Part shown: one piece after another, positions 20,808 to 44,733 of the stretch
Position numbering within the stretch: position 1 is the first letter of the stretch
Layout of the letters: every line of letters starts with the position of its first letter
Origin: a virus
Taxonomy: Duplodnaviria; Caudoviricetes
IMG/VR virus record: IMGVR_UViG_2775507207_000001
Coordinates: 8,017-72,016 of that record
Length of the DNA: 64,000 nucleotides
Strand: one strand, 5' to 3'
The notes under the pieces: generated by a model
The model's database searches: none
What the model saw: only the letters and a program-made list of their open reading frames with translations
What the model was told of the DNA's origin: nothing
Translations under genes and position numbers: made by a program

Positions 20808-20845
20808 GCCGCCTTCGATAAGGCTATCCAAATGAGGGCCGTGAC

Positions 20846-23956: not shown

Positions 23957-23965
23957 GGAGGGCCT

Positions 23966-24811
23966 ATGGCTTATATGGAACAGATGCAGTCGGGCTTCAA
24001 GTACCTGGTTGACGCCGGGGAGGCTGGTAGACGTAGTGCTGAGGGCATGCTTGGGCCCGTCAACGGTGCTATAAGGGAGATAACGGGTGCAGCGGCCGAG
24101 CTGGAAAATATCCCGTTCGTGGGACCTGCTGTCGGTGCCAAGCTCCAGCGGGTGATGCGCGGCGTGGATGCGGCACAGGCCAAGGCCGGCCAGGTGCTGG
24201 CTGTGTACAGCCGTGCGACACGGGGCGCCGCCGAAGTGCAGGAGCGAATGGGGGCGTTGAAGGAGCAGGCGGGAAAAGCTGCGACGGCGATCAACAAGGT
24301 CGCCGGAAAGGTTAATCCCTCGTTGGCAAACATCGTGCCCACCAGCGCATTTGCCGTGGATGCCACGCCGGCACCCGAAGCGGTGAAGCCATTTCCGCAC
24401 CTGCTGATCATCCAGCCCAGGGATCCTAAAATTCAGCCGTACTACTTCAACTTGGATACAGCGGCCTTCGACGAATTGAGTCGCTCGACCGAATTCCGCT
24501 GGGCTTCACAGGAGCGGCTATCGCGGCGCCCGGCGCAGCAGGCCGTGGGCATGGGCGAAGAAAAGCTCACACTCAAAGGTACGATTTATCCCGGCTTCAA
24601 GGGGGGCCTCAAGCAGCTTGACACGTTACGCACCATCGGTGGGCGGCTGCAACCGCTCACTCTGACCACGGGTTATGGCGAGGTGATTGGCACCTGGTGT
24701 CTGAAGTCGATCAACGAGGAGCAGGGCGCGCTGCTGCACGGCGGTATTCCGCGTAAACAAGTATTCACTCTGGAGTTCACGCGCTATGGGGACGACATGC
24801 AGAACATCTGA
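23966..24811 (+). CDS. Tail protein U with N-terminal extension
   Basis: C-terminal GpU domain (RWASQERL, LTLKGTIYP, FTLEF). Confidence 0.85.
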   Translation: MAYMEQMQSGFKYLVDAGEAGRRSAEGMLGPVNGAIREITGAAAELENIPFVGPAVGAKLQRVMRGVDAAQAKAGQVLAVYSRATRGAAEVQERMGALKEQAGKAATAINKVAGKVNPSLANIVPTSAFAVDATPAPEAVKPFPHLLIIQPRDPKIQPYYFNLDTAAFDELSRSTEFRWASQERLSRRPAQQAVGMGEEKLTLKGTIYPGFKGGLKQLDTLRTIGGRLQPLTLTTGYGEVIGTWCLKSINEEQGALLHGGIPRKQVFTLEFTRYGDDMQNI

Positions 24812-24992
24812 CGGGGACATGCTCGATGTCATATGCAATAACGTTTATGGGCACTTGAACGGCAGCGTCGAGGCAGTTCTGGATGCCAATCAGGGCTTGG
24901 GAGACGAGCCCCAGCCTTTCCGCGCTGGTGTGGTGATCCTGCTGCCGGATCTGCCAGCCCCGACCGAGGAAGGGATTAGCTTGTGGGACTGA
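24786..24992 (+). CDS. Tail protein X
   Basis: GDMLDVIC...YG...LDANQGL...LWD. Confidence 0.88.
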   Translation: MGTTCRTSDGDMLDVICNNVYGHLNGSVEAVLDANQGLGDEPQPFRAGVVILLPDLPAPTEEGISLWD

Positions 24993-25085
24993 CTCCGAAC
25001 GGCACCGCCTGCAGCCCGTTGCGTTAAGCGAAAAGAAACTTTGTATTCAGCCCGCCCTGTGCGGGTTTTTCTTTGGAAAAAAACC

Positions 25086-26132
25086 ATGACCCCCACTTTT
25101 CGTATCGTTGCCGACGGTGCCGATATTACGTCCAAGATCAATGATCGACTGTTGTTACTTAGGACTTCTGACAAGCCGGGTATGGAGTCCGACGAGTTTG
25201 AATTGCGTATCGATGACCGCGACGGCCAGGTGCAGTTGCCCCGGCGAGGTAGCTCAATCGAGATTCACCTGGGCTATGCCGAAACGTCTTTGATGCGCCT
25301 AGGGCTTTACGCGGTCGACACGGTCGAAGTTTCCGGCCCGCCGGACACGATTGTGATCAAGGGTAAAGCCAGCGATATGCGCGGCAGTGGTAAGACTATC
25401 CGCAGCGGAAGCTGGGAGGATGCGCCGTTGTCGAAGATCGTGGCCGACATCGCGGCTCGAAATGGCTGGCAGGCAGGCTGTCCGGTGGCGACGAAGGTCG
25501 CTCGTGTGGATCAGCTCAACGAGTCCGACTTTAATTTCATCACGCGCCTGGCTAAGCAATACGACTGCACGGCCAAGGTCGCAGATGGCAAATTGTTGGT
25601 GATGCCACGCCAGGGAGGCCAGACAGCCAGCGGCAAAACGTTCGGGGCGATCACGCTGACCCGCAGCGATCTCAGTCGCTGGCAATTCAGCTTAGGGGAT
25701 CGCAATTCGCACAAGGCCGTGGCGACTAAGCATCAGAACAAAAAGGACGGCAAATTGGCGGTGGTCACCATCGACAACGATGACGCTCCGGACGGCTTGC
25801 CGGCGGTGCACACGGATCGGCATATCTATCCGAACAAGACTGCTGCTGAATCAGCAGCCAAGGCAAGGTTAGCGGCATTCAATCGCTCGACCGCCGACGT
25901 GCGTTTCGAGATGCCTGGCCGGACTGACATTTTTGCCGAGCGCCTGATCAACGCCCAGGGCTTCAAGGTCGGGCTGGATGGCGAATACCTGGCAGATTCA
26001 GTGGAGCAGGTGTTTACCCAGTCTGGCTGGTCGACCACGGTCGAGTGCAATGCCGGCAAGCAAGGCAAATCCAAGGGTAAGAAAAAGAAGGAAACGAAGC
26101 CGCTCAAGGTCGTGAGCGTCGAGAAGCTGTAA
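25086..26132 (+). CDS. Late control D / baseplate hub protein
   Basis: ESDEFELRIDD and QLNESDFNFITRLA motifs. Confidence 0.9.
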   Translation: MTPTFRIVADGADITSKINDRLLLLRTSDKPGMESDEFELRIDDRDGQVQLPRRGSSIEIHLGYAETSLMRLGLYAVDTVEVSGPPDTIVIKGKASDMRGSGKTIRSGSWEDAPLSKIVADIAARNGWQAGCPVATKVARVDQLNESDFNFITRLAKQYDCTAKVADGKLLVMPRQGGQTASGKTFGAITLTRSDLSRWQFSLGDRNSHKAVATKHQNKKDGKLAVVTIDNDDAPDGLPAVHTDRHIYPNKTAAESAAKARLAAFNRSTADVRFEMPGRTDIFAERLINAQGFKVGLDGEYLADSVEQVFTQSGWSTTVECNAGKQGKSKGKKKKETKPLKVVSVEKL

Positions 26133-26180
26133 TGCAATCCACCGCCGCCTGAGTGCGGTATTTTTTTGTCCGGAGTTTTT

Positions 26181-26744
26181 ATGACGATCACTGAACAACA
26201 GCTACAACGCATCATGCCAAACGCCCGCCGACAAGCGGGCGTTTTTGTATCTGCCCTGAACGCGGCAATGGCGCATCGGCAGATCAATACACCGAAACGC
26301 CAGGCTGCTTTCCTGGCGCAGCTTGGTCACGAGTCCGGTCAACTGCAGTATGTCCGCGAGCTGGGCGGGGACCAATACCTGAGTAAATACGATACCGGCA
26401 CTCTGGCTGCCAAGCTTGGTAATACGCCAGCTGCAGATGGTGATGGTCAACGCTATCGTGGCCGAGGGTTGATCCAGATTACCGGGCACGATAACTACCT
26501 GCGCTGCAGTCTGGCACTGTTCGGCGATGAGCGATTGCTGCGCACTCCCGAGCTGCTCGAGCAGCCGCAATGGGCGGCAGAGTCGGCGGCGTGGTTCTGG
26601 TCCGTGAATGGGCTGAATGCGCTCGCGGATCAGGACCAGTTCAACACGATCACTCGCCGGATCAACGGCGGCCTTAATGGCCTGGAGGATCGGCTGCAGT
26701 TGTGGGCCAGGGCGAGGGCGGTGTTATGCGTCTCTTCGATCTGA
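26181..26744 (+). CDS. Endolysin, glycoside hydrolase family 19
   Basis: FLAQLGHES, YRGRGLIQITG, TRRINGG motifs. Confidence 0.95.
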   Translation: MTITEQQLQRIMPNARRQAGVFVSALNAAMAHRQINTPKRQAAFLAQLGHESGQLQYVRELGGDQYLSKYDTGTLAAKLGNTPAADGDGQRYRGRGLIQITGHDNYLRCSLALFGDERLLRTPELLEQPQWAAESAAWFWSVNGLNALADQDQFNTITRRINGGLNGLEDRLQLWARARAVLCVSSI

Positions 26745-27268
26745 TCCCGGCGCAGTTCCGTATCGCCGCTATCAGCTTGCTGTTAGTGGTGGTGTCCGCA
26801 GGATCTGCAGCGTTGGCCTGGACTGCTCAGGACTGGCGTTATGGCAGCGTGCTGGAGCGGCAAGCCCGGCTGCAGGCGGACACCCTCAACGAAATATCCC
26901 AAGCTTCTGCTGCTCTGCAGCGTACCGAGCAGGACAAGCGCCTTGCCCTGGAGCTCCGCCTGCAGAACAAAGACGAAACCCACTACAAGGAATTGACCGA
27001 TGAGCAAATCAAGCAGGCTCGTCTGCGTGATCGCCTGGCTACTGCTGATCTGCGGCTGTCGGTCGTACTCGCCGCCACCGAAACCGCCGGCAGCTGTTCA
27101 GTGCCAACCACCACCGCCACCGGCCGCGTGGTTCATGGCGCCACAAGAGCCCAACTTGACCCAGCGCATGCTCAACGAATTATCGGAGTCACCGATGCCG
27201 GCGACCGAGGATTGATCGCCCTGCGGGCCTGTCAGGCTTACGCAAAAGAAGTTTCTACACCGAAGTAA
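26726..27268 (+). CDS. i-spanin Rz
   Basis: N-terminal TM, coiled coil, ALRACQAY. Confidence 0.88.
   Translation: MRLFDLIPAQFRIAAISLLLVVVSAGSAALAWTAQDWRYGSVLERQARLQADTLNEISQASAALQRTEQDKRLALELRLQNKDETHYKELTDEQIKQARLRDRLATADLRLSVVLAATETAGSCSVPTTTATGRVVHGATRAQLDPAHAQRIIGVTDAGDRGLIALRACQAYAKEVSTPK
27000..27215 (+). CDS. o-spanin Rz1 lipoprotein (embedded in Rz)
   Basis: Lipobox LICGC and proline-rich tract; out of frame within Rz. Confidence 0.8.
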   Translation: MSKSSRLVCVIAWLLLICGCRSYSPPPKPPAAVQCQPPPPPAAWFMAPQEPNLTQRMLNELSESPMPATED

Positions 27269-27383
27269 AAGGAGCGGCCGGGCAGGATGCGTCAACATCC
27301 AACCCGGCCACCTTCCCCGCAGATCGTCCCTGCAAGTCCAGCCAAGGCTCCTGCTTCGTGCACAAAGCGGAGCGAGCCTAGCA

Positions 27384-27399
27384 CTGTTTATCCATACAG
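27384..27399. promoter_or_regulatory. LexA (SOS) box upstream of the methylase
   Basis: CTGTTTATCCATACAG matches CTGT-N8-ACAG. Confidence 0.8.
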
Positions 27400-27417
27400 C
27401 AAAGGTCTTGCTTTTTT

Positions 27418-28212
27418 ATGTCTACACCCATCGTCCCTTGGATGGGCGGCAAACGCCGCCTGGCCGACCGCCTTATCCCGCTCTTCCCGCCACACGAATG
27501 CTACGTTGAAGTCTTTGCCGGCGGCGCCGCGCTCTACTTCATGCGTCCCCAGGCAGCGCCTGTTGAAGTTCTTAACGACATCAATGGCGACCTGGTCACG
27601 CTGTACCGCGTCGTGCAGAACCATCTGGAAGAATTCGTCCGCCAGTTCAAATGGGCGCTCAGTTCCCGCCAGGTGTTCGAGTGGCAAAAGATGACCCGCC
27701 CGGAAACCCTCACCGACATCCAGCGCGCCGCCCGTTTCTTTTACCTGCAGCACCATGCCTTCGCGGGCAAAGTGACCGGGCAGACGTTCGGCACTGCAAC
27801 GACCGGCCCAGCCATTAACCTTCTGCGGATCGAGGAAAACCTGTCTGCAGCATGGCAGCGTTTATCCGGCACTTATGTTGAAAACCTGGGCTGGCTTGAA
27901 TGTGCCGAGCGCTACGACCGTGCCCATACGTTCCACTACATGGATCCACCTTACTGGCAGACCGCCGGCTATGGTGTGGATTTTCCATTTGAGAATTACG
28001 AGCGCATGGCCGACTTTATGCGGCGCTGCAAAGGCAAGGTGATGGTCAGCATCAACGATCATCCCGATATCCGGCGAGTGTTTGATGGGTTTCACTTTGA
28101 GATGGTGGACATTCGTTACAGCACCGCGAATGCGCGGCAGGGCAAGACCGAAGTCAGCGGAGAGTTGATAATCATGAACTGGGAGCCTGCAGCATTGGGA
28201 GGCCTGTTCTGA
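27418..28212 (+). CDS. DNA adenine methyltransferase (Dam/D12 family)
   Basis: WMGGK, EVFAGG, NDIN and DPPY motifs. Confidence 0.93.
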   Translation: MSTPIVPWMGGKRRLADRLIPLFPPHECYVEVFAGGAALYFMRPQAAPVEVLNDINGDLVTLYRVVQNHLEEFVRQFKWALSSRQVFEWQKMTRPETLTDIQRAARFFYLQHHAFAGKVTGQTFGTATTGPAINLLRIEENLSAAWQRLSGTYVENLGWLECAERYDRAHTFHYMDPPYWQTAGYGVDFPFENYERMADFMRRCKGKVMVSINDHPDIRRVFDGFHFEMVDIRYSTANARQGKTEVSGELIIMNWEPAALGGLF

Positions 28213-28403
28213 TTTGAGAGGTAGATTACGCATCGCAATTTGCTATTCAAGTGAGGCGGCATGTCCATCTCGCCTGATGCTTACTCACGCTTATTAAGAG
28301 TGGTGGCGTAATGGGTTCATTGAACTAAGATGAACCCTTTAGAGCTTATTGTGATCTTTCAATTACTCATTGGTAGCAGATGGACAAGCGCATCGCAGGT
28401 CTT

Positions 28404-29153
28404 TCATTTCTGCTTACTCTCGGCTGGGTCACAGCCGTTATGTTCGTCATGTGGTTTTTCAGCTGATGGGTTCGGCCTTATAAGCTCTGCCCCCTGATTC
28501 CTGACGCTGCCCACTGCTTTGCCAACCGCATACCACTCAAAGTCCTCCACAGGCTGGCAACATTCCTTCGCTATTTCCTCGGCCCGGGCTGGAGTAAGGT
28601 AGGGGTCGATCCACTCCCTGGCATGCTCAGGTGTCAGCACCAACGGCTTGCGGTCGTGGATGTCCACCATGCCCTGATCACTGGCAGCGGTGATGATCAC
28701 GAACCCATCGCCGTCCTGGGGATCCAGGCCAGGATGAATCTGGGCTAGTGCGCCAAAGAACATGGGCTTCTGACTCTTCAGGCGAATGAAGTAGGGCTGC
28801 TTTCTCTTCGGATCGTCAGGGTCTTTAACCCACTCATACCACCCTTCACTCGGCACCAGGGCTCGGCCATTCGGCCAAAGTTGCTTAAAAAACTTTCCCG
28901 TGGTGACCGTCTCTACACGGGCGTTAATCGGGTCGGGGCGTTTGCCCTTGGCCCAGAACGGCGCCCATCCCCATTTGACTGCATCGATATGCAGCCCGTC
29001 CTCTGCGGCGTGCAGCAACTGAACCCGTGTCGACGGAGCGACGTTGTAGCGATCAATTGGCTGAGCGTCATAGCCGCTGAATAGCTCTATTTGGGGGCTC
29101 AGTTCTTCAATGAAGATCGCCATCCCTTCGTACTGCACAAATCGTCCGCACAT
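28404..29153 (-). CDS. SOS response-associated peptidase (SRAP/YedK/HMCES family)
   Basis: MCGRF start, YNVAP, INARVE, WYEW, IHDRKP. Confidence 0.95.
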   Translation of the reverse strand: MCGRFVQYEGMAIFIEELSPQIELFSGYDAQPIDRYNVAPSTRVQLLHAAEDGLHIDAVKWGWAPFWAKGKRPDPINARVETVTTGKFFKQLWPNGRALVPSEGWYEWVKDPDDPKRKQPYFIRLKSQKPMFFGALAQIHPGLDPQDGDGFVIITAASDQGMVDIHDRKPLVLTPEHAREWIDPYLTPARAEEIAKECCQPVEDFEWYAVGKAVGSVRNQGAELIRPNPSAEKPHDEHNGCDPAESKQK

Positions 29154-29217
29154 ACGCCTTCTCCGTCTGTCGAAATCCCCTACAGAAAAATTGACCGCAC
29201 GCGTCCTACAAAGTTAA

Positions 29218-29233
29218 CTGTACATTCGTACAG
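29218..29233. promoter_or_regulatory. LexA (SOS) box between SRAP and umuD
   Basis: CTGTACATTCGTACAG. Confidence 0.9.
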
Positions 29234-29253
29234 TGCATGTAAAAGGTCGCATC

Positions 29254-29679
29254 ATGAGCTTCACCATTTTAGGTCCTATCGCCGAGGCAGGCGTGAAGCT
29301 GCCTATGTGTTCGTTCCAGGTTCCGGCTGGCTTCCCTTCGCCGGCAGCGGATCATATTGAGCAGCACATCTCATTGGATGAGGTCCTGAATATCCGCGCA
29401 CCGCATGTGTACCTGGTAGCCATCACCGGGGAAAGCATGCAGGGGATTGGTATCTTCGAAGGCGATCTCGCGGTGGTGGATCGTGCCATTGAGCCGGCGC
29501 ACGGGCATGTGGTAGTGGCTCTGCTGAACAATGAGCCCGTCTGCAAGCGCCTATGTAAGCGCGGCCGAGAGGTAGTCCTTTTGTCAGAAAATCCCAAATA
29601 CCCGGCGCGATACGTTCTCGAAGGGGATGAGCTATCAGTCTGGGGCGTGATCACCAGCACAGTGCGCAGCCATGTCTAA
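29254..29679 (+). CDS. umuD: UmuD/RulA, Pol V subunit (S24 peptidase)
   Basis: VPAGFPSPAAD cleavage site, GESM, VCKRL. Confidence 0.92.
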   Translation: MSFTILGPIAEAGVKLPMCSFQVPAGFPSPAADHIEQHISLDEVLNIRAPHVYLVAITGESMQGIGIFEGDLAVVDRAIEPAHGHVVVALLNNEPVCKRLCKRGREVVLLSENPKYPARYVLEGDELSVWGVITSTVRSHV

Positions 29680-30949
29680 GCAGCAACCGACCCTTGCGCT
29701 GGTCGACTGCAACAGCTTCTATGCCAGTTGCGAGCGAGTATTCCGGCCGGACTTGGCGAAGGTGCCCATCGTGGTGCTGAGCAATAACGACGGCTGTGTC
29801 ATTGCTCGCAGCTACGACGCCAAGCCATTCATCAAGATGGGCGAGCCGTATTTCCAGATCAAGCACAAGCTCAAGCAACACGGCATTGTCGCGTTCTCCT
29901 CCAACTATGCGCTGTACGGCGACATGAGCGAACGCGTCATGAGTCTGATTGAGGCGATGGTGCCGGCAGTTGAGGTGTACAGCATCGATGAGGCATTTGC
30001 CGATCTGACCGGTGTCGGTGGTTTGGATGCCTTAGGCCGGCAGATCCGCGCCCAGGTACTTCGCTGCACCGGCATACCTGTTGGTGTCGGTATTGCTCAT
30101 ACAAAGACCCTGGCGAAGCTGGCAAACCACACTGCGAAGCGCCTGCAATCGCAGACCGGTGGTGTGGTCAATATCACCGATCCGGTTAAGCGGGACTGGG
30201 TACTGCGTAATACGGACGTGGCGGAGGTGTGGGGCGTTGGCCGAAAGATGAAACTCCACCTCGATGCGATGGGAATCAAGTCTGCAATGGATTTGGCGAA
30301 GGCGGACCCCTGGACGCTCCGTAAGAAGTTCAGCGTTGTGATCGAGAAGACGGCCAGGGAGCTGGGCGACACGCCTTGCTTGGAGCTGGACGACCCGGAT
30401 CCGCCGAAGCAGGAGATCTGCTGCAGCCGGATGTTCGGCCAGCGGCTGACGGAGCTGCCGCCTATCAAGGAAGCGGTGGCCACCTACATGATGCGAGCTT
30501 CTGAAAAGCTCCGCGCCCAGAACTCGCTGTGCAAGACGGTGCGCGTGAGCATCCGTACCGGCATGTTCAATCCAGAGGAGGCGAAGTATGCCAACGGAGT
30601 GGTGGTAGACATGCCATATCCCACCGATGACGTGCGACTGCTAACAAAGGCGGCTGTTGATGCGGTCGATCGTATTTACCGACCAGGCTTCAAATACAGT
30701 AAGGCTGAAGTGATGCTGCTCAACCTGTGTCAGCCCGGCGAGTATACCGATGATCTTTTCGCTATTTCGCAGCCTGCTGAGTCCACCCGTGTGATGACAG
30801 TGCTAGACGAGATTAATGGTCGATGGGGGAGGGGAACGCTGCGGTCTGCCAGCGTTCCCAGCAACCCTGCTTGGGCTATGCGCCGGGAGATGATGAGCCA
30901 CAGTTATACAACGAGAGTGGATCATTTATGGAGAGTCCGTTGCGAGTGA
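29672..30949 (+). CDS. umuC: UmuC/RulB Y-family DNA polymerase
   Basis: DCNSFYASCE, SNNDGC, YSIDE, WAMRRE..S..YTT. Confidence 0.95.
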   Translation: MSKQQPTLALVDCNSFYASCERVFRPDLAKVPIVVLSNNDGCVIARSYDAKPFIKMGEPYFQIKHKLKQHGIVAFSSNYALYGDMSERVMSLIEAMVPAVEVYSIDEAFADLTGVGGLDALGRQIRAQVLRCTGIPVGVGIAHTKTLAKLANHTAKRLQSQTGGVVNITDPVKRDWVLRNTDVAEVWGVGRKMKLHLDAMGIKSAMDLAKADPWTLRKKFSVVIEKTARELGDTPCLELDDPDPPKQEICCSRMFGQRLTELPPIKEAVATYMMRASEKLRAQNSLCKTVRVSIRTGMFNPEEAKYANGVVVDMPYPTDDVRLLTKAAVDAVDRIYRPGFKYSKAEVMLLNLCQPGEYTDDLFAISQPAESTRVMTVLDEINGRWGRGTLRSASVPSNPAWAMRREMMSHSYTTRVDHLWRVRCE

Positions 30950-31039
30950 GCGGATTAGCCTAGTTTAGAATGAAGCACGTACGACAAAATTATGACGAAA
31001 AAAAACAGAATGTCGCTCTGTTGACAAAATCATGACGGC

Positions 31040-31090
31040 AGGTACGATCAAGGCATGCGCCGCAACGCGGCGCATGCCTTGATCGTACCT
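31040..31090. repeat. Perfect 24-bp inverted repeat with a 3-nt loop
   Basis: AGGTACGATCAAGGCATGCGCCGC-AAC-GCGGCGCATGCCTTGATCGTACCT. Confidence 0.95.
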
Positions 31091-31110
31091 ATGCACAAAA
31101 ACTACCTAAC

Positions 31111-31138
31111 AAAAAACCCCGCATTTGCGGGGTTTTTT
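31111..31138. terminator. Bidirectional intrinsic terminator
   Basis: AAAAAACCCCGC-ATTT-GCGGGGTTTTTT. Confidence 0.85.
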
Positions 31139-31152
31139 GGCGAAATAGGCTG

Positions 31153-31467
31153 TCAGGCTATTGCCCGTTCCTCTTTCAATTGATGTGCTCTATCGTTAAT
31201 CACGAACTTGATAATCGACTTGACATCATCAGGGCAGTTCTTAAACGAAATATGCGACAGAACGGTGCGACCACGTTTAAGGATCAGCCCACCGATCAGT
31301 TCGTCCACGAAGGACTGTGTGGCATCTTTGCCCGAAAAATCGATTGCAACATTCTGGCCGGTTTCCAGGCATCGTTCGATTTCCTTTCGAAACGGCGTGG
31401 CAGATGCCCTCATACCCAGCGTGCGGATGCTTTCTGATCCTTTCGCTAAGATGATTTGAGTTTGCAT
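31153..31467 (-). CDS. STAS-like (DUF4325-type) protein
   Basis: VAIDFSG..ATQSFVDELIG STAS signature. Confidence 0.75.
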   Translation of the reverse strand: MQTQIILAKGSESIRTLGMRASATPFRKEIERCLETGQNVAIDFSGKDATQSFVDELIGGLILKRGRTVLSHISFKNCPDDVKSIIKFVINDRAHQLKEERAIA

Positions 31468-31566
31468 GGCGCTTCCCTCGGCAATTTTATGCGTTGTACA
31501 AAATTTATCGTACGCATCAGTGAAAATATTAGCTAGATCTATCTGGTAAGTAAATTGACGCTAGGA

Positions 31567-32598
31567 TCACTCAAAACTGATGTCGTCATCGACTGCATCC
31601 TCTACATCAGGCAGCAGCGCAGCAATTGTGATCTGCGGCAATTTGTCGCGGTTGCAGTGAAAAGAGATAGCAACCCCTTTCCAGGGAGCATTTTCCAACC
31701 GCACTGCGTCGTCCGTTTTTGTGTTCAAGCAAGCGTCTCCGCTTGCTATTACGAGAAAGCCATCAGCTGCCTGAGCAATTCTAGCTGTTGTTGTCAAACC
31801 TACACCTTGATTTTGGCTATCTCCTTCATAGCCAACCAACGGCCCCCGATTACAACTGACGCGAGCGACCAGCGCTGCACGGATAGCAGCTGAATCAGTT
31901 CGTTCCTTAAGCTGAGCGTGCCCTCGGAGGGTTGCAAGGAAGCCACAACCGTTGTCAACGATAGCTAGTCTTACGTCTCCATTTGACTGGAAGTGTTGAC
32001 ATGCGACCCATACCGAAGCCTGAAAATTCCCTTCTTTTTTTGCATGAGAAAGCGCATTTTCTAGGAGTTCTTTTAGCGCGTATTCAATCGGGCGCCTGTA
32101 TGAGTCCATTTCTTCTTGAGTTCGCTCCTCCGCCTCTCCAACCATGGCAACTGCGAGACGCGATGCAATCTCTTCAGATTGGCCATTGACGACCTTAACC
32201 AGCTCAACACATCGATCCGGTTCACCCTGAGGGTTTCTTGCAGTCTCGACATCAATACCGTCAACGCTCAAACCTCCGAAAAACTCCATCCTGATCAGAT
32301 AATCAAGTAGGTGCTGTTGCATCCAGCGCACATGAAAAGTTTTATCGATAGCTGACTCGAGAGTGGCACGGAGCAAAGCCAGACCCAACGGATCGACAAA
32401 CGAAAGCGTCGATGCGTCCAGAATCACATCCCCATCACGATTGGCGATTTGTGAACAGAACTCAAAAATCAAGCCCGGCTCTGAGTCGCTTAGCGTTCGA
32501 GGGAAATAGATAACATCTTCCGTTGTGAGTACATCCTGCTCGACCACACTCAAATCCTTGAAAAATTTTGGCGACAGACTATATCGATGTGCCAGCAT
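31567..32598 (-). CDS. STAS-like plus HATPase (GHKL) protein
   Basis: VILDASTLSFVDPLGL N-terminus; ELLENALSHA, IVDNGCG and NQGVGL GHKL boxes. Confidence 0.8.
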   Translation of the reverse strand: MLAHRYSLSPKFFKDLSVVEQDVLTTEDVIYFPRTLSDSEPGLIFEFCSQIANRDGDVILDASTLSFVDPLGLALLRATLESAIDKTFHVRWMQQHLLDYLIRMEFFGGLSVDGIDVETARNPQGEPDRCVELVKVVNGQSEEIASRLAVAMVGEAEERTQEEMDSYRRPIEYALKELLENALSHAKKEGNFQASVWVACQHFQSNGDVRLAIVDNGCGFLATLRGHAQLKERTDSAAIRAALVARVSCNRGPLVGYEGDSQNQGVGLTTTARIAQAADGFLVIASGDACLNTKTDDAVRLENAPWKGVAISFHCNRDKLPQITIAALLPDVEDAVDDDISFE

Positions 32599-32984
32599 CC
32601 ATTCAATGAGTTGCAGACTGTAAGCTCGTCTGGCCGATGAGTGGCCTCAATCATTTACGCTTATGCTGTATGAATATACAGGATTTTGCAATCAATGAAT
32701 GGCTATATTTTGGCTTTCAGATTTTGAGCACCTATCCCAGTCTGCTACCAGCATTTTTTAGAGAGGTGCCTCAAGCGAGTGGGCATATTCGAGAATCTTG
32801 CGGACCCGAAGTGACGCGACCATGAACTCTGTGCGTAGTGGCGGGATGATCAAGGACTGGTTGCTTAGGAATTGCTACGGGAGCTGATGCGCTACGCCTT
32901 GTATGCAGAGCCTGCTCAACATTTGGGGAGGACTATGTCCAATACATCATCGAAGCAAGGTACAGACTGAATTGACCGAACCCC

Positions 32985-33052
32985 ATGGGGCAAAAATGGG
33001 GCAAACCGTACGCCAATCTATGCCATTCAATGCCAATTATGCATTTATGCAA
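32985..33052. repeat. Putative att arm sites: ATGGGGCAAA x2 and roughly 10-bp-period ATGC(C/A) repeats
   Basis: Direct repeats at 32985 and 32996; ACGCCA/ATGCCA/ATGCCA/ATGCAT/ATGCAA at 33010-33052, about 80-140 bp inside the junction. Confidence 0.55.
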
Positions 33053-33117
33053 CCCTGTGTGATCTAGCTGTATAGCCAGAAAACACGGGGCTGTCCTTCA
33101 AAATACCCCACATACCC

Positions 33118-33165
33118 CTACACAATCGGGGTGTGGGAGGACAGATCGGAGGTGTTTTTACTCAT
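33118..33165 (-). pseudogene. mutS: mutS 5' stub left by prophage integration
   Basis: ATG AGT AAA AAC ACC TCC GAT CTG TCC TCC CAC ACC CCG ATT GTG TAG = MSKNTSDLSSHTP-IV*; MutS normally continues HTP-MMQQY; fluorescens-group tailocins typically lie next to mutS. Confidence 0.85.
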
Positions 33166-33216
33166 TGGGTAATAGGCAAATTCGTTGAAAGTGATGGGGC
33201 AAAGGGGGCGCGTGGT

Positions 33217-33401
33217 CCAGTGTCGATCAGTTTAGAAAGGCGCACGTCAAAACAAAGCAGGTCGAATGTGGGAGCTGTCGAGCTTCAGCGAGGCTGCGAT
33301 GGGATCACCGCCCTGTACCGGCGGGCCGAAGCACCCGCATCGCTGAAGTTCAAAAGCTCCACACCTTGCCCAATCGTGGTCGCTTAACTGATCGGCATTG
33401 G
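33217..33401. mobile_element. MITE-like insert with an internal degenerate REPIN in the mutS leader
   Basis: Terminal IRs CCAGTGTCGATCAGTTTAG / CTTAACTGATCGGCATTGG (16/19); flanking near-direct repeats GGGCGC(G/T)TGG(T/C)CCAG; internal GTGGGAGC...GCTCCACAC pair at 33267-33364. Confidence 0.6.
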
Positions 33402-36062: not shown

Positions 36063-36158
36063 TATTTTGATTCAAGTTAAGTGAAAGACGCGTGTTTAAT
36101 GCATAAATATGCAAATTAGCATTTGCCAACCCCAAAAACTCCCGTCACTATCCGCGCT

Positions 36159-36893
36159 ATGCAAAAACGCAACGTTTCTATCGTCTTAAGAGAGCTGCTG
36201 GACCGCGACCGGATCTCCCCCACGGAGCTTCACCGGCGCACTGGCGTGCCTCAATCCACACTGTCCCGGATCCTCAGCGGCAAGATCGTTGATCCGTCGG
36301 ATAAACACATCTCCCGTATCGCCGAGTATTTCCGCGTGAGCACTGATTACCTGCGCGGGCGCGCGGCAGTGGGTGCTTTGCGCGATGACGGGCGTGACCC
36401 GATGCATTCGGAACTCAAGGACATAAGCCTGTGGGACGACGACACCCCCGTTAATGATGACGAGGTGTCGATCCCCTTTCTGCGCGAGGTTGAATTGGCT
36501 GCTGGATCAGGAAGATTCGTCATCGAGGAAAGCGAGAAGGCCAGCCTGCGGTTCGGCAAGCGCAGCCTGCGGCATAACGGTGTGCAGTTCGACCAGGCCA
36601 AGTGCGTGACGGTACGCGGCAACAGTATGTTGCCGGTGTTGCGCGACGGCGCCACGGTAGGGGTGAATGCCGGCAAGAGCGGCATTGGCGATATCGTCGA
36701 TGGTGACTTGTATGCCATCAATCACAACGGCCAGTTGCGGGTTAAACAGCTCTACCGCCTGCCTTCCGGCATTCGCCTGCGCAGCTTCAATCGTGATGAG
36801 CACCCCGATGAGGACTACAGCTTCCAGGAGATCCAGGATGAGCAGATCAGTATCCTCGGTCATGTTTTCTGGTGGGGCATGTACGCCCGCTAA
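36159..36893 (+). CDS. prtR: PrtR-like repressor (HTH plus S24 peptidase)
   Basis: HTH (VPQSTLSRIL), ELAAGSG cleavage site, GNSM, RVKQL. Confidence 0.88.
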   Translation: MQKRNVSIVLRELLDRDRISPTELHRRTGVPQSTLSRILSGKIVDPSDKHISRIAEYFRVSTDYLRGRAAVGALRDDGRDPMHSELKDISLWDDDTPVNDDEVSIPFLREVELAAGSGRFVIEESEKASLRFGKRSLRHNGVQFDQAKCVTVRGNSMLPVLRDGATVGVNAGKSGIGDIVDGDLYAINHNGQLRVKQLYRLPSGIRLRSFNRDEHPDEDYSFQEIQDEQISILGHVFWWGMYAR

Positions 36894-36910
36894 CCTCCAC
36901 GCGTAAGAAG

Positions 36911-36937
36911 AAACCCGCCCATGTGCGGGTTTTTTTT
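36911..36937 (+). terminator. Terminator after prtR
   Basis: AAACCCGC-CCATGT-GCGGGTTT with T tract. Confidence 0.8.
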
Positions 36938-36979
36938 CGCCCCTAAAAAACCGGCCAAGCCCAAGCCCGCAAGGCTTCC

Positions 36980-37053
36980 AATGCATTAATGCATTTCCAT
37001 GGTAAAAATAAATGCATCTGTGCATTGACTGTATATGCATACATGCATATTCT
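36980..37053 (+). promoter_or_regulatory. Sigma70 promoter of the tailocin operon with ATGCAT operator-like repeats and a near-SOS box
   Basis: TTGACT (37025-30), 17 bp spacer, TATTCT (37048-53); CTGTATATGCATACAT; several ATGCAT palindromes, also present upstream of prtR. Confidence 0.75.
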
Positions 37054-37060
37054 TCACCTC

Positions 37061-37413
37061 AAGCCAGCCAACAAGGCCTGGTGGAGGCGGCAAGGATGCT
37101 GCCAAGGAAGACAAGGAAGGCACGCAACATCGGCAAGGACGCCATCGAAGCGATGGCAGGGATGCCAGGCAACACCGGCAAGGATGCCGACGCTCTTTAG
37201 TTTCAACGCTTCAACAACAGGCAGCGATGAACCGGCCTTAACGGTTCAGAGGGTTGGCAACTGACCCGGGTGTGCAGCGTAAAGCACCAGAAGCAGTTAT
37301 CCGGCAGACAGGGATCGTGGTCGGAAAAACATCGAGGAAAGGACCGTACCGCGCCAGTAGCGCCGAAAGTCCGAGGACAGCATTACTGAAAAGCCCGGGC
37401 GACCGGGCTTTTT
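37061..37413 (+). ncRNA. Structured leader RNA with GGA hairpins, a boxA-like site and a terminator
   Basis: Four stem-loops with (A/G)GGA loops at 37086-37189; CGCTCTTTA at 37191-99; terminator at 37390-37413. Confidence 0.6.
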
Positions 37414-37483
37414 GGAATGCCTACCTACCCAAGCATTTGTAAATGAAATACGGACTATTTATTGCTCAGCCAGGAGGCGTGAC

Positions 37484-37822
37484 ATGACAAATGAACAGCA
37501 AGCGTTAGCGGAAATGCCTATCTGGCTGGTGATCGTATTGGCGGTGATCGGCGGGGTCTCAGGTGAAATGTGGCGCGCCGATAAAGAAGGCGCACGTGGC
37601 TGGTCGCTGATCCGCCGATTGGCCCTGCGTTCCGGGGCGTGCATGGTCTGTGGGGTGTCGGCCCTGATGCTGTGCTACGCCGCCGGCATGTCGATCTGGA
37701 CCGCCGGCGCCATTGGTTGCCTGACCGCCATGGCCGGTGCCGACGTGGCCATCGGCCTTTATGAGCGATGGGCGGCCAAGCGCATCGGGATCAACCAAGG
37801 CTCCGGCCAGGACCCGCACTAA
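37484..37822 (+). CDS. Tailocin holin
   Basis: AGGAGG RBS; TM segments; homologous to the prophage holin. Confidence 0.88.
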   Translation: MTNEQQALAEMPIWLVIVLAVIGGVSGEMWRADKEGARGWSLIRRLALRSGACMVCGVSALMLCYAAGMSIWTAGAIGCLTAMAGADVAIGLYERWAAKRIGINQGSGQDPH

Positions 37823-37845
37823 TCGTTGCAAGGACGCGACTTAAA

Positions 37846-38361
37846 ATGACGTTTATCGAAAAGCCATCCCAACTGCCCCAAGCCATCGGCGCGGTGCTGC
37901 ATGCGGCCTTCCCGGACATCAAGGTCGGCAGTCACCAGGACTTTCAAGGCGATGCTGAACAAACCGGCGTAATGGTTACGGTCGAAGGCAATGGCCCGGG
38001 CATTCGTTCTCGCGAGGGGCGCAAGGCCCACGTTCTGGCCATTTCACTCAGGGCCATGGTCGCCCCCGGTGCATTGCCGTTCGACGCCTGCGACCTGGCC
38101 AGCCAACTCATGGACCTGGTGCTGGATAACCGTTGGAACCTACCCCAGGCACAGTGCGATTTGCCGGCGAATATCGTCGCTGCGCCCGCTGTGCGCACGT
38201 CCGTGCAAACGGACTACGACACCTGGACGGTTTCCTTCACGCAAACCCTCTATCTGGGGCCGACGTTACTCGACGATCCCACAGGCCAACCGCTATTTGC
38301 CTGCACCTGGGACGTCTCCAACATCGACGACCCGGCCCAATACAAGCCACTGGCGGAGTAG
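37846..38361 (+). CDS. Tail completion/terminator-like protein
   Basis: WTVSFTQTLYLG; position before the spike gene. Confidence 0.6.
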   Translation: MTFIEKPSQLPQAIGAVLHAAFPDIKVGSHQDFQGDAEQTGVMVTVEGNGPGIRSREGRKAHVLAISLRAMVAPGALPFDACDLASQLMDLVLDNRWNLPQAQCDLPANIVAAPAVRTSVQTDYDTWTVSFTQTLYLGPTLLDDPTGQPLFACTWDVSNIDDPAQYKPLAE

Positions 38362-38364
38362 CCC

Positions 38365-38976
38365 ATGTTCGACGCGCTGTTACGCATGCAATTGGGACCG
38401 ATCGTCGAACGCCTGGCCGAGATGGAGTCCCAGCTCGAGGACCTCTACCGCCGCGCCGAGAGCTTCTGCCGGATCGGTATTTGCCAGCAGGTTGATGCGG
38501 CCAGCAACACCTGCAAGGTCAGCCACGGTGACCTGCTCACCCCGGCGATCCGTTTTTTCAACCCCAGTGCCGGAGCACAAACCGAAACCCGCATTCCCAC
38601 CGTGGGTGAGCAATGCCTGCTGCTCAACTACGGCGGGGGGGAGGGCGGTGTGCAATCCGTGGCCCTGTTCGGCCTTAACAGTGATCGCTTCCCGCCAGTC
38701 TCCAGCGTGGCGACGCTGACCCGGCGCCGACATCAAGACGGCACCCAAAGCGACTACGACGACGCCAGCCATACCTTCAACTGGGTCAACGGCCCGACCA
38801 CCTTCAGCGGTTCCCGCGAACAGGTTGACGTCAAAGTCGGCGCCGCCAGCCTGACCCTCAGCGCCCAGGGCATCACCCTGCAAGTCGGTGGCACCAGCCT
38901 GTTGCTGGATGCCGGCGGCGCGCACTTCAGCGGCCCGGTGGTGGACCATCAAGGACGCGTCATCAGCCCCCGATAA
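38365..38976 (+). CDS. R-tailocin baseplate spike V
   Basis: RIPTVGEQCLLL OB-fold motif. Confidence 0.85.
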   Translation: MFDALLRMQLGPIVERLAEMESQLEDLYRRAESFCRIGICQQVDAASNTCKVSHGDLLTPAIRFFNPSAGAQTETRIPTVGEQCLLLNYGGGEGGVQSVALFGLNSDRFPPVSSVATLTRRRHQDGTQSDYDDASHTFNWVNGPTTFSGSREQVDVKVGAASLTLSAQGITLQVGGTSLLLDAGGAHFSGPVVDHQGRVISPR

Positions 38977-38985
38977 GGACACCCC

Positions 38986-39318
38986 ATGCTCGGAATCGAT
39001 AGGAACACCGGGGCGGCCGTCGACGACTGGCTGCAATTTGTGCAGCGCGCCACCCGAGCGCTGACCACCCCTGTGGGCACTCGCCAGAAGCGCCCGTTGT
39101 ACGGCTCGCTGATCCCGCAATTGCTCGGCCAAAACCTTGGTGACGACCTGTTGATCCTCGCCCAGAGCCACGCCGCGCAAGCCTTCTACAACACCCACAA
39201 CGGCATCGGCGACTTCGACCCTCAGGTCATCGTCGCCACCCGCCAAGGCGCCGGCCTGCTGTTGCGGTTTGCCGGCACCTGGAAAAACCGCCAACAATCC
39301 TTCGAGGTCGTGACATGA
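38986..39318 (+). CDS. Baseplate W/gp25
   Basis: LTTPVGTRQKRPLYGS. Confidence 0.85.
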   Translation: MLGIDRNTGAAVDDWLQFVQRATRALTTPVGTRQKRPLYGSLIPQLLGQNLGDDLLILAQSHAAQAFYNTHNGIGDFDPQVIVATRQGAGLLLRFAGTWKNRQQSFEVVT

Positions 39319-40310
39319 GCATGCTGATCCCCGGCCAGAACCAACTGGCGGAACCGGCCATCATCAAGGTCGATGAGTTCGAACCGTTGCTGGCCGAATT
39401 CAAAGCGTTTGTCATCGACTACGTCGCCACCCGCGCACCGCAAAGCGCAGCCAAACTCCAGGTCAGCCTCGACAACGAAAGCGAACTGCTGACCCTGGCC
39501 CTGGAAGCCTTTTGCGTGCGTCTGCAAACCCATGAGCGCAAATACAACGCCCGCATCAAGCAGATGCTGGCGTGGTGGGCCACCGGCAGCAACCTGGACG
39601 CACGCCTGGCCGACATGGGCCTGGAACGCCAAGTACTCGACCCAGGCGACCCAGCCGCGTTCCCGCCGGTGCCGCCCACCTTGGAAAGCGACGACGACGC
39701 CCGCCTGCGTTACTACCTGGCGCCCCACGCCCCAGCGGCGGGCTCGCGCATGCAGTATCGCCGTGAAGTGTTCACCTTGGGCGAGCGCCCAGCAGTGAAA
39801 GTGCAAAGTGCGACGCCCGGTGTGGTCACGGTCACCTACACCTTCGACCCGGACGGTTACGCGGCCCAGGTCAAGGACGGCAACGCTCGGCGCACCGCAC
39901 CGGGTGAAGTCATGGTCACTGTGCTTTCCAGGGAGGGCGACGGCACGCCGTCTGCCGACTTGCTTGACGGTGTACGTCGACATTTTGCACGGCCGGATGT
40001 AAGGCCGGAAACCGATCTTGTCAGCGTTCAAGGCGCACAGATTCAACCTTATAAAATTCGCGTGGTGGCCATGATCAACGCCGGCCCAGACTCGGGGCTG
40101 ACCCAAGTGGCGGCGCAGAAACTGCTGCAAGACTACGCAGAGTCCTGCCACCGCCTGGAAGGGCGGGTGGACCCCAGCTGGATCGACTACGCCATCCACA
40201 GTGCTGGCGCTGCGCAACTGCACATCCTCGAACCGCTGGCGCCGATTGTCAGTACCGCGTTCCAGGCCCCGTACTGCACGGGCGTCGAGGTGGAGGTGCG
40301 CACACTATGA
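39315..40310 (+). CDS. Baseplate J
   Basis: ATGSNLD, ESDDDARLR, DVRPETD motifs. Confidence 0.88.
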   Translation: MSMLIPGQNQLAEPAIIKVDEFEPLLAEFKAFVIDYVATRAPQSAAKLQVSLDNESELLTLALEAFCVRLQTHERKYNARIKQMLAWWATGSNLDARLADMGLERQVLDPGDPAAFPPVPPTLESDDDARLRYYLAPHAPAAGSRMQYRREVFTLGERPAVKVQSATPGVVTVTYTFDPDGYAAQVKDGNARRTAPGEVMVTVLSREGDGTPSADLLDGVRRHFARPDVRPETDLVSVQGAQIQPYKIRVVAMINAGPDSGLTQVAAQKLLQDYAESCHRLEGRVDPSWIDYAIHSAGAAQLHILEPLAPIVSTAFQAPYCTGVEVEVRTL

Positions 40311-40945
40311 GTGAACCCAACGCAAGTTTGCTGCCGGCCAACAGCTCGCCGCTGGAAAAGGCCCTGGACCTGGGTTTCGGCAGATTGCTTGAGCGCGTCA
40401 CCCCGCCGTTTCCGGCGCTGATGAACCCGCTGTACACCCCCAGCGAATTCCTGCCTTACCTGGCCGCCGACCGCGGCGTCAGCGAATGGGATGCCGAGGC
40501 CAGCGAAGCGGAAAAACGCCTGACCGTGGCTTTGTCCTGGCAGATCCAGCGCCAGGCAGGTACGCCCAAGGCGCTGAGCCACGCGGTGGAATCATTGGGC
40601 TTCACGCCCAATATCAGCGCCTGGTACCAGCAACGTCCGCTGGGCGTGCCTTACACCTTCGACGTGCAGGCGATCATCGGGCGCAGTTGGTCCAGCGGCG
40701 ACCACAACCGGCTGATTCGCCGCATCAATGCAGCCAAAAGTGAGCGCGATCAGGCGACGATCACCATCGTGCATGAAACCGAAGGCCAGCTCGCGCTCAC
40801 GCAAGTGCTCGACGCGCCTTTAAGCGACGGCGAGTTCTACCTGAACGGCGCGTTGCCGGAATTGGCGCTGGTGGCTCGGCTCAACAGTGCCGGGGTTGCC
40901 CAGCACTACACCATTAACGATTACGACCTCAGGGCGCAGCCATGA
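40307..40945 (+). CDS. Tail protein I
   Basis: SLLPANSSPLE, FLPYLA, AGTPKAL. Confidence 0.85.
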   Translation: MSEPNASLLPANSSPLEKALDLGFGRLLERVTPPFPALMNPLYTPSEFLPYLAADRGVSEWDAEASEAEKRLTVALSWQIQRQAGTPKALSHAVESLGFTPNISAWYQQRPLGVPYTFDVQAIIGRSWSSGDHNRLIRRINAAKSERDQATITIVHETEGQLALTQVLDAPLSDGEFYLNGALPELALVARLNSAGVAQHYTINDYDLRAQP

Positions 40946-41472
40946 CAGATGAAATCACGCGCCTGGTGCGCTTCACCTCCAAAGGTTTGGATGAAGTGCT
41001 ACAGGCAAAGAACCAGGGCCTCAAAGGCGAAATCACCCACATCGGCGCCGGCACCGGCCGCTACAACCCCGACGGCACGGAAGTGGCCTTGCGTGACGAG
41101 CGTCAACGGGTGGCCATCGTCGATTACGAAGACCTGGGCGAACGCCAACTCAGGATGGCCGCGCTATTTGACGGCGACGGCGAGTATGAGATTGGCGAGT
41201 TCGGGTTTTACCTCGCCAGCGGCACCTTGCTGGCGGTGTATTCCGTGGCGGGGAAGTTGCTGACGTATAAAGCGGCGGCGGCGCGGGTGCTGCAGAAGTT
41301 TACGCTGGATGTTTCGCCGTTGCCGGCGGATAGCGTGACGATTGTGGTGGGGAGTGAGAACTTGAATCTGTTGTTGGCGGAGGAGATCGCGATTATGGCG
41401 GCGGCTTCGGTTGGCAATATGTCCCGCCACGTTGATTTGATGTTTCGGGTTATGCAGCTCGAAGCGAAGTAG
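40942..41472 (+). CDS. Tail fiber proximal (collar) protein
   Basis: ITHIGAG...EIGEFGFYLASGTLLAVYS baseplate-attachment domain only (176 aa). Confidence 0.75.
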   Translation: MTDEITRLVRFTSKGLDEVLQAKNQGLKGEITHIGAGTGRYNPDGTEVALRDERQRVAIVDYEDLGERQLRMAALFDGDGEYEIGEFGFYLASGTLLAVYSVAGKLLTYKAAAARVLQKFTLDVSPLPADSVTIVVGSENLNLLLAEEIAIMAAASVGNMSRHVDLMFRVMQLEAK

Positions 41473-41516
41473 TAGCACTGACAAAAGTGCTGGAAAGATT
41501 AACTGACAGGGAGTTG

Positions 41517-42302
41517 ATGATGGGACTTGAAACGACTATCACGAAAGTTGTGGACGCATGTAATAAGCTTACGGAAACGGTTACCAACCAAATTGGGAAG
41601 ATTGATGCGCGGGTAGAGGCCGCTTCAAATCAGTTTACTGCTTGGCGTAATAGTGTGCAGGCGAAGGATATTAATGGTCGTGCGCTTTATAAACAGGATA
41701 TTGATCTCACTGGGTTGTCTACCGACGTATTTTACCCTGTTTGGTGGACTATGCCCGGTAACGAGGCGGGTGAAACAGAAATTACCGTCTCGCGGGTATA
41801 TTATCGAGACCAGGAAAAAGCGCCCTTTGGTCAAGGGATTTATCACATCGCTGGCTTGAACTTGCAGCTTGAGGGTGTCGGATATATATGGAATGGTGAT
41901 GCTAACTTTCTAGCTATTAAGCGGATCTCCCAAACTTACCGTGAAACGGTGAGAGGTGTTTCGTTTGGTATGATTTGTACAGCGCGTGCCATTACTGGGC
42001 TCAAACCTATGTACTTAGGTTTGGTCGCGGGGCAACAAACGAACGCTCCACAGTTTTCTGGGATGTACCTGAGGGGTGGGCTGAGCTATACCATCACTAA
42101 AACGTTTGATTATCCTGTTAACTACAGCAAGTTAGATACTGAAGTGATTATGAAGGATGACGTTAACGCTGATTGGGAAGTTCGTTGGGCGGTGAAACCT
42201 TATAGCTTGACTCAGGCTGACGCTGTGCTCGGCAAAGCCTTTGAAGAGAAGCGCCTGGCCTATTCCCACGATAACGACGCTCGCTATACCGCCAAGGTTT
42301 AA
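41517..42302 (+). CDS. Tail fiber distal / receptor-binding protein
   Basis: N-terminal coiled coil, lower GC, fiber position. Confidence 0.65.
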   Translation: MMGLETTITKVVDACNKLTETVTNQIGKIDARVEAASNQFTAWRNSVQAKDINGRALYKQDIDLTGLSTDVFYPVWWTMPGNEAGETEITVSRVYYRDQEKAPFGQGIYHIAGLNLQLEGVGYIWNGDANFLAIKRISQTYRETVRGVSFGMICTARAITGLKPMYLGLVAGQQTNAPQFSGMYLRGGLSYTITKTFDYPVNYSKLDTEVIMKDDVNADWEVRWAVKPYSLTQADAVLGKAFEEKRLAYSHDNDARYTAKV

Positions 42303-42313
42303 GGACTGATCAA

Positions 42314-42616
42314 ATGACTTTGTTTATCGGAAAGTTGGTAACTCCTGCGGGCGACTCGTTGATCAACGTACCCGCCAGCCCGCAGACCCTCAAAGGTCTG
42401 GGCTTTAGCGATGAGGCCGCTCAGACGCTGATCGAGAACGCCGCGGCCGCAGCCGCACTCGCTAGCACTATTGCTGCCCGCCGTTCTGCCTATGTCAGCG
42501 AAGCTGACCCGATGTACCTCGAATGGCAATTCGACGGTACGGCTGAGAAGGAAAAAGAATGGCGAGCCAAAGTAGCCGAAATCAAGGCGCGCTACCCTTT
42601 GCCAGAAGAAAAGTAA
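42314..42616 (+). CDS. Tail fiber chaperone
   Basis: RRSAY..EADP...W...VAEIKARYP. Confidence 0.75.
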   Translation: MTLFIGKLVTPAGDSLINVPASPQTLKGLGFSDEAAQTLIENAAAAAALASTIAARRSAYVSEADPMYLEWQFDGTAEKEKEWRAKVAEIKARYPLPEEK

Positions 42617-42703
42617 CCCCCACCGCGAAAGCGGTTTTTTTTCGCCTCCCCAAAGCCCCTCCCCGCAGGGGCTTTTGCATTTTCCACCCGGAGATTTCCA
42701 CCC

Positions 42704-42877: not shown

Positions 42878-42879
42878 CC

Positions 42880-44552: not shown

Positions 44553-44585
44553 GGGCCGGCGCAATCTGAAGCGAGCACGGTCAAG

Positions 44586-44670: not shown

Positions 44671-44733
44671 AGGGGCCGTGCTCAGGTTTAGATTTTTTGC
44701 ACTTTTCAACACCGCTCAACAAGGAATTGCCCC

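Follow-up and report, generated by a model that had tools for sequence, protein, structure and literature searches.

A prophage integrated at the HTPMMQQ motif of a Pseudomonas mutS gene, probably with replacement of the gene's 5' end

In the 64,000-nucleotide stretch of provirus DNA analysed here (the window), the right end of a prophage abuts the orphaned first codons of a Pseudomonas mutS gene. From comparison with related lysogens we consider it very probable that a phage integrated site-specifically and replaced the 5' end of the gene, mutS remaining functional under phage-supplied control and excision returning the native leader. In the mechanism that we propose, window 33118-33165 would be the attR of a temperate lambdoid Pseudomonas phage, and an arm-binding tyrosine integrase and an excisionase would recombine the phage attP with codons 11-14 of the host mutS. 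The exchange would fall in an identity block, CACACCCCGAT, and probably inside ACCCCGAT. The P arm of attP, beside int, would carry a leader like that of mutS, together with an ATG and 13 codons; integration would then produce a chimeric, in-frame mutS at attL on phage-supplied 5' sequence, and would leave the native promoter, leader and first 13 codons at attR as a 15-codon stub. Excision would put the native arrangement back, a precise event giving MSKNTSDLSSHTPMMQQYW.

The native mutS 5' end at attR

The features at the junction are the following:

32984..33124, minus strand: P' arm of the prophage, with three GGCRT repeats at 10-nt spacing (33010-33034) and the tandem TTGCCCCA (32985-33005)
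33118..33165, minus strand: orphaned native mutS 5' end (attR), 13 native codons MSKNTSDLSSHTP and then IV and a stop from the phage arm
33125..33135, no strand assigned: core identity block CACACCCCGAT (mutS orientation), from attL/attR pairs in all but one lysogen
33166..33220, minus strand: native mutS leader, at least 41 kb from the mutS body, with a degenerate copy of the tandem motif, GCGCCCCCTTTGCCCCA

Direct reading of the minus strand from 33165 to 33118 gives MSKNTSDLSSHTPIV and a stop (ATG AGT AAA AAC ACC TCC GAT CTG TCC TCC CAC ACC CCG ATT GTG TAG), confirming the stub ending in IV-stop that the first-pass annotation had described. Judged by its first 13 codons, which also begin intact mutS at many loci of the group, the stub is the orphaned native 5' end of a Pseudomonas fluorescens-group mutS. 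To obtain comparison loci, the window 23-mer at 33125-33147 was scanned across one genome per species, which gave 43 loci (42 from Pseudomonas and one from a Lautropia MAG). The frame continues as ...DLSSHTPMM(Q/R)QY..., an ordinary MutS start, in 40 of them (39 Pseudomonas and the Lautropia MAG). It is broken in the other three, namely P. haemolytica (L003) and Pseudomonas sp. QS1027 (L037), which break at HTP/IV like the window, and P. lactis (L006), which breaks 5 codons later, at MMQQY/GLEMV-stop.

When window 26000-37500 was compared with the 43 loci by blastn, the alignment started exactly at 33125 in 32; it started elsewhere in three (at 32985 in P. haemolytica and QS1027, at 33111 in P. 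lactis), and eight gave no alignment over the stub. Since similarity to 32 of the 43 mutS loci begins at 33125, the boundary between host and phage is sharp, at CCGAT/T, and the insertion point lies within the HTPMMQQ codons of mutS, after HTP (CCG AT/T). What had been proposed from the letters alone is thereby upheld: the MutS match stops after CACACCCCGAT, at the base where the 32 host alignments begin; the prophage sits at HTP/MMQQ, through which 40 of 43 loci read; and mutS is parted from its native promoter and start, the native leader and 13 codons being stranded at attR. Among 401 Pseudomonas species genomes, 14 contain a 15-mer spanning the junction (33121-33135), at 16 places in all, and one contains the reversed control; the junction is therefore no chance match. 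The full 34-nt junction, searched for exactly, was absent among the one-per-species genomes scanned and present in one other IMG/VR record. No second stub was found in the window, where the sole other 11-mer match, with one mismatch at 63533, is expected by chance.

Repeats had been noticed beside the break and likened to att arms, and the comparison bears this out. The sequence ATGGGGCAAA stands twice, at 32985-32994 and 32996-33005, 11 nt apart (direct repeat D2), and the tandem is kept in all 15 aligned attR arms (the window and 14 others; one place, G007:C2, and both places in G253 were left out of the alignment). In these arms about 140-150 nt are conserved, with three GGCRT repeats before the tandem and an abrupt end after TTGCCCCA-N3-TTGCCCCA. 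Of 18 attL sites next to an integrase, at the other end of the prophages, 17 have the tandem motif as well, at -77 counted from the His codon. Taken with the arm-binding domain of the integrase described below, the motif fits lambda-type arm sites, and the repeats are putative integrase arm sites.

The record edge

The source of the window is a 72,016-bp IMG/VR provirus (G000) that ends 1 nt past an integrase start codon. Neither the MutS_I nor the Phage_integrase (tyrosine integrase) model gave a match in the 72-kb record, and a six-frame search gave no MMQQ-type frame; a sister provirus (G005) was likewise without MutS_I and integrase matches. Positions 1-165 of the record are 90% identical in nucleotides to the DNA that immediately precedes the start codon of a 420-aa integrase gene of Pseudomonas sp. 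QS1027, and the first ORF of the record (3-164, minus strand) is an excisionase (phrog_539, E 5e-10). Two further IMG/VR records (L113 and L123) begin at the same 26-mer, at the same base. The QS1027 match, the excisionase as first ORF and the shared 26-mer start indicate that the record was trimmed at a gene edge, before the integrase and attL. The integrase, attL and mutS body of the window prophage are out of view because the record is cut 1 base past the integrase start, and the integrity of mutS in this host is therefore read from relatives. As three IMG/VR records illustrate, boundary calling for proviruses can stop one gene too early in such prophages, and integrase, attL and host gene are then lost.

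Related lysogens and the rebuilt mutS

The QS1027 integrase carries an Arm-DNA-bind_2 domain (E 2e-21) and a Phage_integrase domain (E 5e-17), so that a lambda-type module is composed of a tyrosine recombinase with an N-terminal arm-binding domain, in the relative, and the excisionase of this record. With a threshold of E <= 1e-60 the 420-aa integrase was found in 23 of 401 Pseudomonas species genomes, and 18 of the 23 have the 5' end of mutS at most about 2.3 kb downstream of it: in 13 genomes (14 of 24 loci) the mutS start is within the 1.5-kb flank, and in five more it is at 1.4-2.2 kb, behind a cargo gene. In the remaining five genomes the flank was covered to 1.5 kb. None of the isolated phages has this integrase: identity stays below 60% in all 181 matching phage records, and the best match is Aeromonas phage pAEv1818 (42.4% identity). 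The integrases of the Stx phages 933W and VT2-Sakai and of their relatives show 36.7% identity over 93% of the protein; the integration site of 933W is wrbA, not mutS.

Integrase and junction stand on one contig, 39-40 kb apart in five genomes and 80 kb apart in a sixth. Both ends were compared in six lysogens, the five with 39-40 kb spacing and QS1027, one of the six being a 10.7-kb remnant. At attL, all six have an in-frame mutS starting MNK(A/Q/P)(I/F)(S/T)DLS(S/A)HTP followed by MMQQYW, that is, a phage-borne leader, ATG and 13 codons: MNKAISDLSSHTP, then MMQQYW. At attR, all six have a stub with a different, host-type start (MSKNTS.., MSDLSA.., MNKAVS.., MDLSS..). The identity shared by attL and attR is CACACCCCGAT in five lysogens and only ACCCCGAT (33125-33132), the smallest block of any lysogen, in G169; judged by the polymorphism of this one lysogen, strand exchange probably takes place within these 8 bases. 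The locus of QS1027 runs fdxA, mutS, a PIN-domain gene, integrase, a 147-aa ORF, C5 methylase, lysis genes, dam, cargo, P' arm and stub; its mutS begins MNKPISDLSSHTPMMQQYW, and its stub is of the host's own type (MSKNSP...), now frameshifted.

The replacement start was also found on phage DNA. IMG/VR was scanned for the 26-mer at the excisionase start, which gave 21 stretches, and in 5 of them an attL-type mutS start follows the integrase. In a sixth, the 38,967-bp metagenomic viral contig L133, the P arm with its ATG and 13 mutS-like codons MNKAISDLSSHTP is joined directly to the P' arm, TGTGTTGGAGTAC..., which is the same P' arm as in the window, and both arm motifs are present. By this arrangement L133 is the unintegrated attP form, which indicates that the phage itself carries the replacement start. 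The other 15 stretches have too little DNA or gave no such site.

For mutS the first-pass annotation had allowed two outcomes, inactivity or expression from a phage-supplied start, and had asked what lies at the left prophage end. Looked at in the relatives, that end has an integrase and a mutS with a replacement start in six of six. The phage-start alternative is the one that the relatives favour, given the in-frame gene at attL in all six and the free attP with its own start; simple inactivation of mutS is unlikely. We infer that the attL of the window prophage resembles those of its relatives and that the phage leader would drive adequate mutS expression.

That mutS is inactive or strongly under-expressed in the lysogen, the prophage being a real mutator switch in the manner of SpyCI at mutL and repair coming back only on excision, is in our judgement very improbable. 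It would be in keeping with the removal of the native promoter and start to at least 41 kb away, and the umuDC genes beside attR would fit a mutagenic lifestyle. The P arm of a relative offers no promoter above chance either: a sigma-70 scan of one attL region gave 4 sites against 2.5 +/- 1.6 in shuffles, which is the chance level (the same scan of the native leader gave no site). Against it, mutS is in frame with its own ATG in all six related lysogens, the leader is conserved, with the tandem motif in register in 17 of the 18 integrase-adjacent attL sites, and for P. putida F1 the inference of Chu et al. was that mutS is in frame. Moreover, P. gessardii has kept its mutS on a phage-type start despite a truncated integrase and a genome in which the junction 15-mer was not found, which suggests that the chimeric mutS is good enough to keep. 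The idea of a mutator switch thus survives at most as a possible swap of two promoters, and not as an on/off disruption, as frame and start are restored in all six relatives. The precedents named for it, mobile elements in mismatch-repair genes such as SpyCI and those of Vibrio, hold up.

The prophage body

The DNA to the left of the stub belongs to a lambdoid prophage of complete appearance, identified from its PHROG matches; its visible length is at least 41 kb, and the whole prophage probably measures about 43 kb.

1..33124, plus strand, continuing 8016 nt further left to the record start: lambdoid prophage body (PHROG matches)
925-3246: primase/helicase (PHROG)
5757-7757: large terminase (PHROG)
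7965-9446: portal (PHROG)
9443-10585: protease (PHROG)
10951-11979: major head (PHROG)
20846-23956: tape measure (PHROG)
25041-26132: tail protein (PHROG)
26166-26744: endolysin (PHROG)
26702-27268: Rz spanin (PHROG)
27418..32598, no strand assigned: cargo block adjoining attR (Pfam matches)
27418-28212, plus strand: Dam methylase (Pfam)
28404-29153, minus strand: SRAP, SOS-response-associated peptidase (Pfam)
29233-29679, plus strand: UmuD (Pfam)
29672-30949, plus strand: UmuC, Y-family polymerase (Pfam)
31153-31467, minus strand: DUF4325 (STAS-like) protein (Pfam)
31567-32598, minus strand: HATPase (HATPase_c) protein (Pfam)

The terminase and portal region is 72-73% identical in nucleotides to P. 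aeruginosa temperate phages, and the 8 kb to the left of the window hold a repressor, a KAP NTPase, a C5 methyltransferase and the excisionase. The sister provirus G005 is collinear with the window prophage at 74-92% nucleotide identity.

These data bear on the possibility that the stub is a fossil, with no working attL beside mutS, no excision and mutS on a native-type leader. A rearrangement of this kind is seen in P. haemolytica, which has an intact MSKNTS-type mutS, a stub 6.2 kb away and about 190 nt of duplicated leader, and remnants are found in QS1027 and P. gessardii too. Here, however, phage genes from excisionase through lysis genes run without interruption for at least 41 kb to the left of the stub, in the same order as in the lysogens of about 40 kb, and the sister provirus shares the same layout at the identity given above; we regard a fossil as very improbable here. 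The existence of rearranged and decayed versions in P. haemolytica, P. gessardii and QS1027 nevertheless means that the state in this host could differ from the replaced 5' end that we favour.

Several cargo genes deserve mention in their own right. SRAP and umuD-umuC (28404-30949) are carried beside the mutS attachment site and survive in the 6.2-kb remnant of P. haemolytica. The DUF4325/HATPase pair just inside attR (31153-32598, minus strand) could be a defence module; in PADLOC it gave weak matches alone, to the N-terminal part of DrmA (E 6e-6 and 4e-8), and a defence role is not claimed on matches so weak and partial. A KAP-family P-loop NTPase encoded 2.5-1.1 kb to the left of the window (G000:C1:5502-6896) matches the candidate defence family PDC-S20 (E 1.5e-138).

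The right flank

Beyond the stub, the native leader is followed by an insertion, by variable cargo and by a tailocin locus.

33221..33399, no strand assigned: 179-nt insertion in the leader region, with a 24-nt inverted repeat I1 (33271-33294 / 33337-33360)
33545-33841, minus strand: DUF3077 protein, in the variable cargo between mutS leader and prtR (33545-35931)
34240-34788, plus strand: 182-aa ORF, variable cargo
35073-35600, minus strand: 175-aa ORF, overlapping the SocA/Panacea-like protein
35437-35931, minus strand: SocA/Panacea antitoxin-like protein, overlapping the 175-aa ORF
36123..64000, plus strand: prtR repressor (36123-36893) and tail-only cluster, the known mutS-cinA tailocin locus

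The 32 loci with an alignment start at 33125 show the leader to be conserved: identity is 79-98% from that base to an end point at 33186-33220. The 179-nt insertion appears in most loci as a gap between the blocks 33125-33220 and 33400-33474, and is continuous in L005 and L006. It lies 56 nt upstream of the native mutS ATG, is common to P. lactis and P. paralactis, the latter with an intact mutS, and resembles a small mobile element, or a REP-like one, within the promoter region of mutS. The SocA/Panacea-like protein and the 175-aa ORF may be a toxin-antitoxin pair.

The prtR gene, on the strand opposite to the phage repressor, is 82-86% identical in nucleotides to that of the P. fluorescens Q8r1-96 element DVM-2008. 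The cluster behind it comprises baseplate, sheath, tape measures, central fibre J and tail fibres; all nine structural ORFs tested are tail proteins, and none is a head protein or a terminase. As window 36123-64000 holds a contractile tail set (sheath, baseplate) and a lambda-like one (fibre J), followed by several tail-fibre genes, the locus has the appearance of an R-type and an F-type cluster combined. In IMG/VR it is included in the provirus. An entry of the tailocin cluster itself through this att site was considered but is not claimed.

Other users of the site

The mutS motif is used by at least one other kind of element. In P. lactis DSM 29167 an element with a 332-aa integrase, which has no BLASTP similarity to the first (420-aa) family, supplies MTDLSSHTPMMQQY followed by W and leaves a stub ending ...MMQQYGLEMV-stop. 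There the rebuilt mutS starts MTDLSSHTP and is immediately preceded by the 332-aa integrase and a Zeta-toxin-domain protein (L051, 15041-17013). In L108 (IMGVR_UViG_2791355519_000002: 34481-44832) a start of the first family, family A (MNKAIS...), lies downstream of a family-A integrase (88% identity) and is itself cut at MMQQY/GLEMV-stop by the second, P. lactis-type family (family B). A family-A start cut by a second junction means that the elements stack.

Decay leaves traces of its own. In P. gessardii the phage-type mutS start stands beside the truncated integrase. The 6.2-kb right-arm remnant of P. haemolytica (partial dam, SRAP, umuDC, DUF4325, HATPase, P' arm and stub) adjoins the mutS with native-type start and duplicated leader.

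The leaders of intact mutS genes carry a further sign. The tandem GCCCCA-N5-GCCCCA of both phage arms is present at -76/-77 in 29 of the 37 intact mutS loci of the 23-mer set, two of the 29 being known attL sites, and is missing in eight. The motif is thus shared in register by intact loci, and leaders of non-lysogens may be fossil P arms. On this basis we put forward, tentatively and as the less probable side of the question, that the Pseudomonas mutS 5' end is a palimpsest and that many "native" leaders, including that of the window, are fossil phage P arms. Each element may overwrite the promoter, leader and first 13 or so codons and push older elements outward, the 5' end outlasting their decay. 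Two unrelated integrases at one site, the P. gessardii start and the family-A start cut by a family-B element are compatible with it. The reverse direction, a phage arm copied from a host leader, is the alternative. If the palimpsest is true, the last-integrated element sets mutS regulation.

Comparison with known systems

Elements of this kind have been described by Chu et al. 2017 (mBio 8:e02045-16, PMC5296598), who report elements, some of them prophages, in the mutS HTPMMQQ motif of hundreds of beta- and gammaproteobacteria. According to their account the elements cut the gene off from its host start and bring a start and promoter of their own; excision, with mutS in frame, was shown by PCR in P. 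putida F1, E. coli 536 and B. multivorans CF2, and in V. splendidus 12B01 it gave a 2-bp scar and a hypermutator. The window element is a further example of what that account describes: the insertion is in the same motif and the host start is orphaned, as read in the window, and a new start and upstream region with mutS in frame are found in the relatives. What it adds, since the kind was already described, is mainly a well-resolved example from the P. fluorescens group. Unlike the reported V. splendidus 12B01 element, no 2-bp scar is implied here, and unlike the elements in the account of Chu et al. that of the window has mutS on one side and a tailocin cluster on the other. Chu et al. searched for integrases related to that of V. 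splendidus 12B01 and adjacent to mutS; in the family described here, adjacency to mutS is seen in 18 of 23 genomes. By BLASTP the 420-aa integrase shows no similarity to the truncated one next to mutS in E. coli 536. New here are the arm motifs, the two unrelated integrases at the same site, the stacking beside a tailocin cluster and a hint that old phage arms survive as "native" mutS leaders.

In Streptococcus pyogenes, too, the 5' end of a mismatch-repair gene, mutL, is occupied by a phage-like element, SpyCI; the accounts of it describe a proposed regulator of mutation rate whose integrated form interrupts expression and gives a mutator phenotype. The present case differs from those accounts in that the reading frame and start codon are replaced, as seen in six of six relatives, so that a loss of mutS function would not be expected.

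Prophages beside tailocins have been reported in a "mutS-cinA intergenic hotspot" in P. putida BW11M1 (Ghequire et al. 2015) and P. chlororaphis O6 (Vacheron et al. 2021), and the same hotspot holds the Prophage 1 loci (Loper et al. 2012; Mavrodi et al. 2009). The neighbourhood and the order mutS, prophage, cargo, prtR/ptbA and tail genes are the same here. These papers, in the passages that concern the site, treat it as intergenic, whereas in the present case the att site is inside mutS codons 11-14 and the 5' end of the gene is rewritten. Besides the general account of Chu et al., our literature search found no paper placing the P. fluorescens-group att site within mutS, although Table S2 of Chu et al. 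may list such strains. The "mutS-cinA intergenic" tailocin and prophage hotspot thus includes an attachment site inside mutS itself.

The consequences concern mutagenesis. Because mutS sets the mutation and recombination barrier of the cell, a swap of its promoter and start by a prophage could shift the mutation rate with lysogeny and with induction. With umuDC and SRAP beside the site, lysogeny may affect mutagenesis in two ways.
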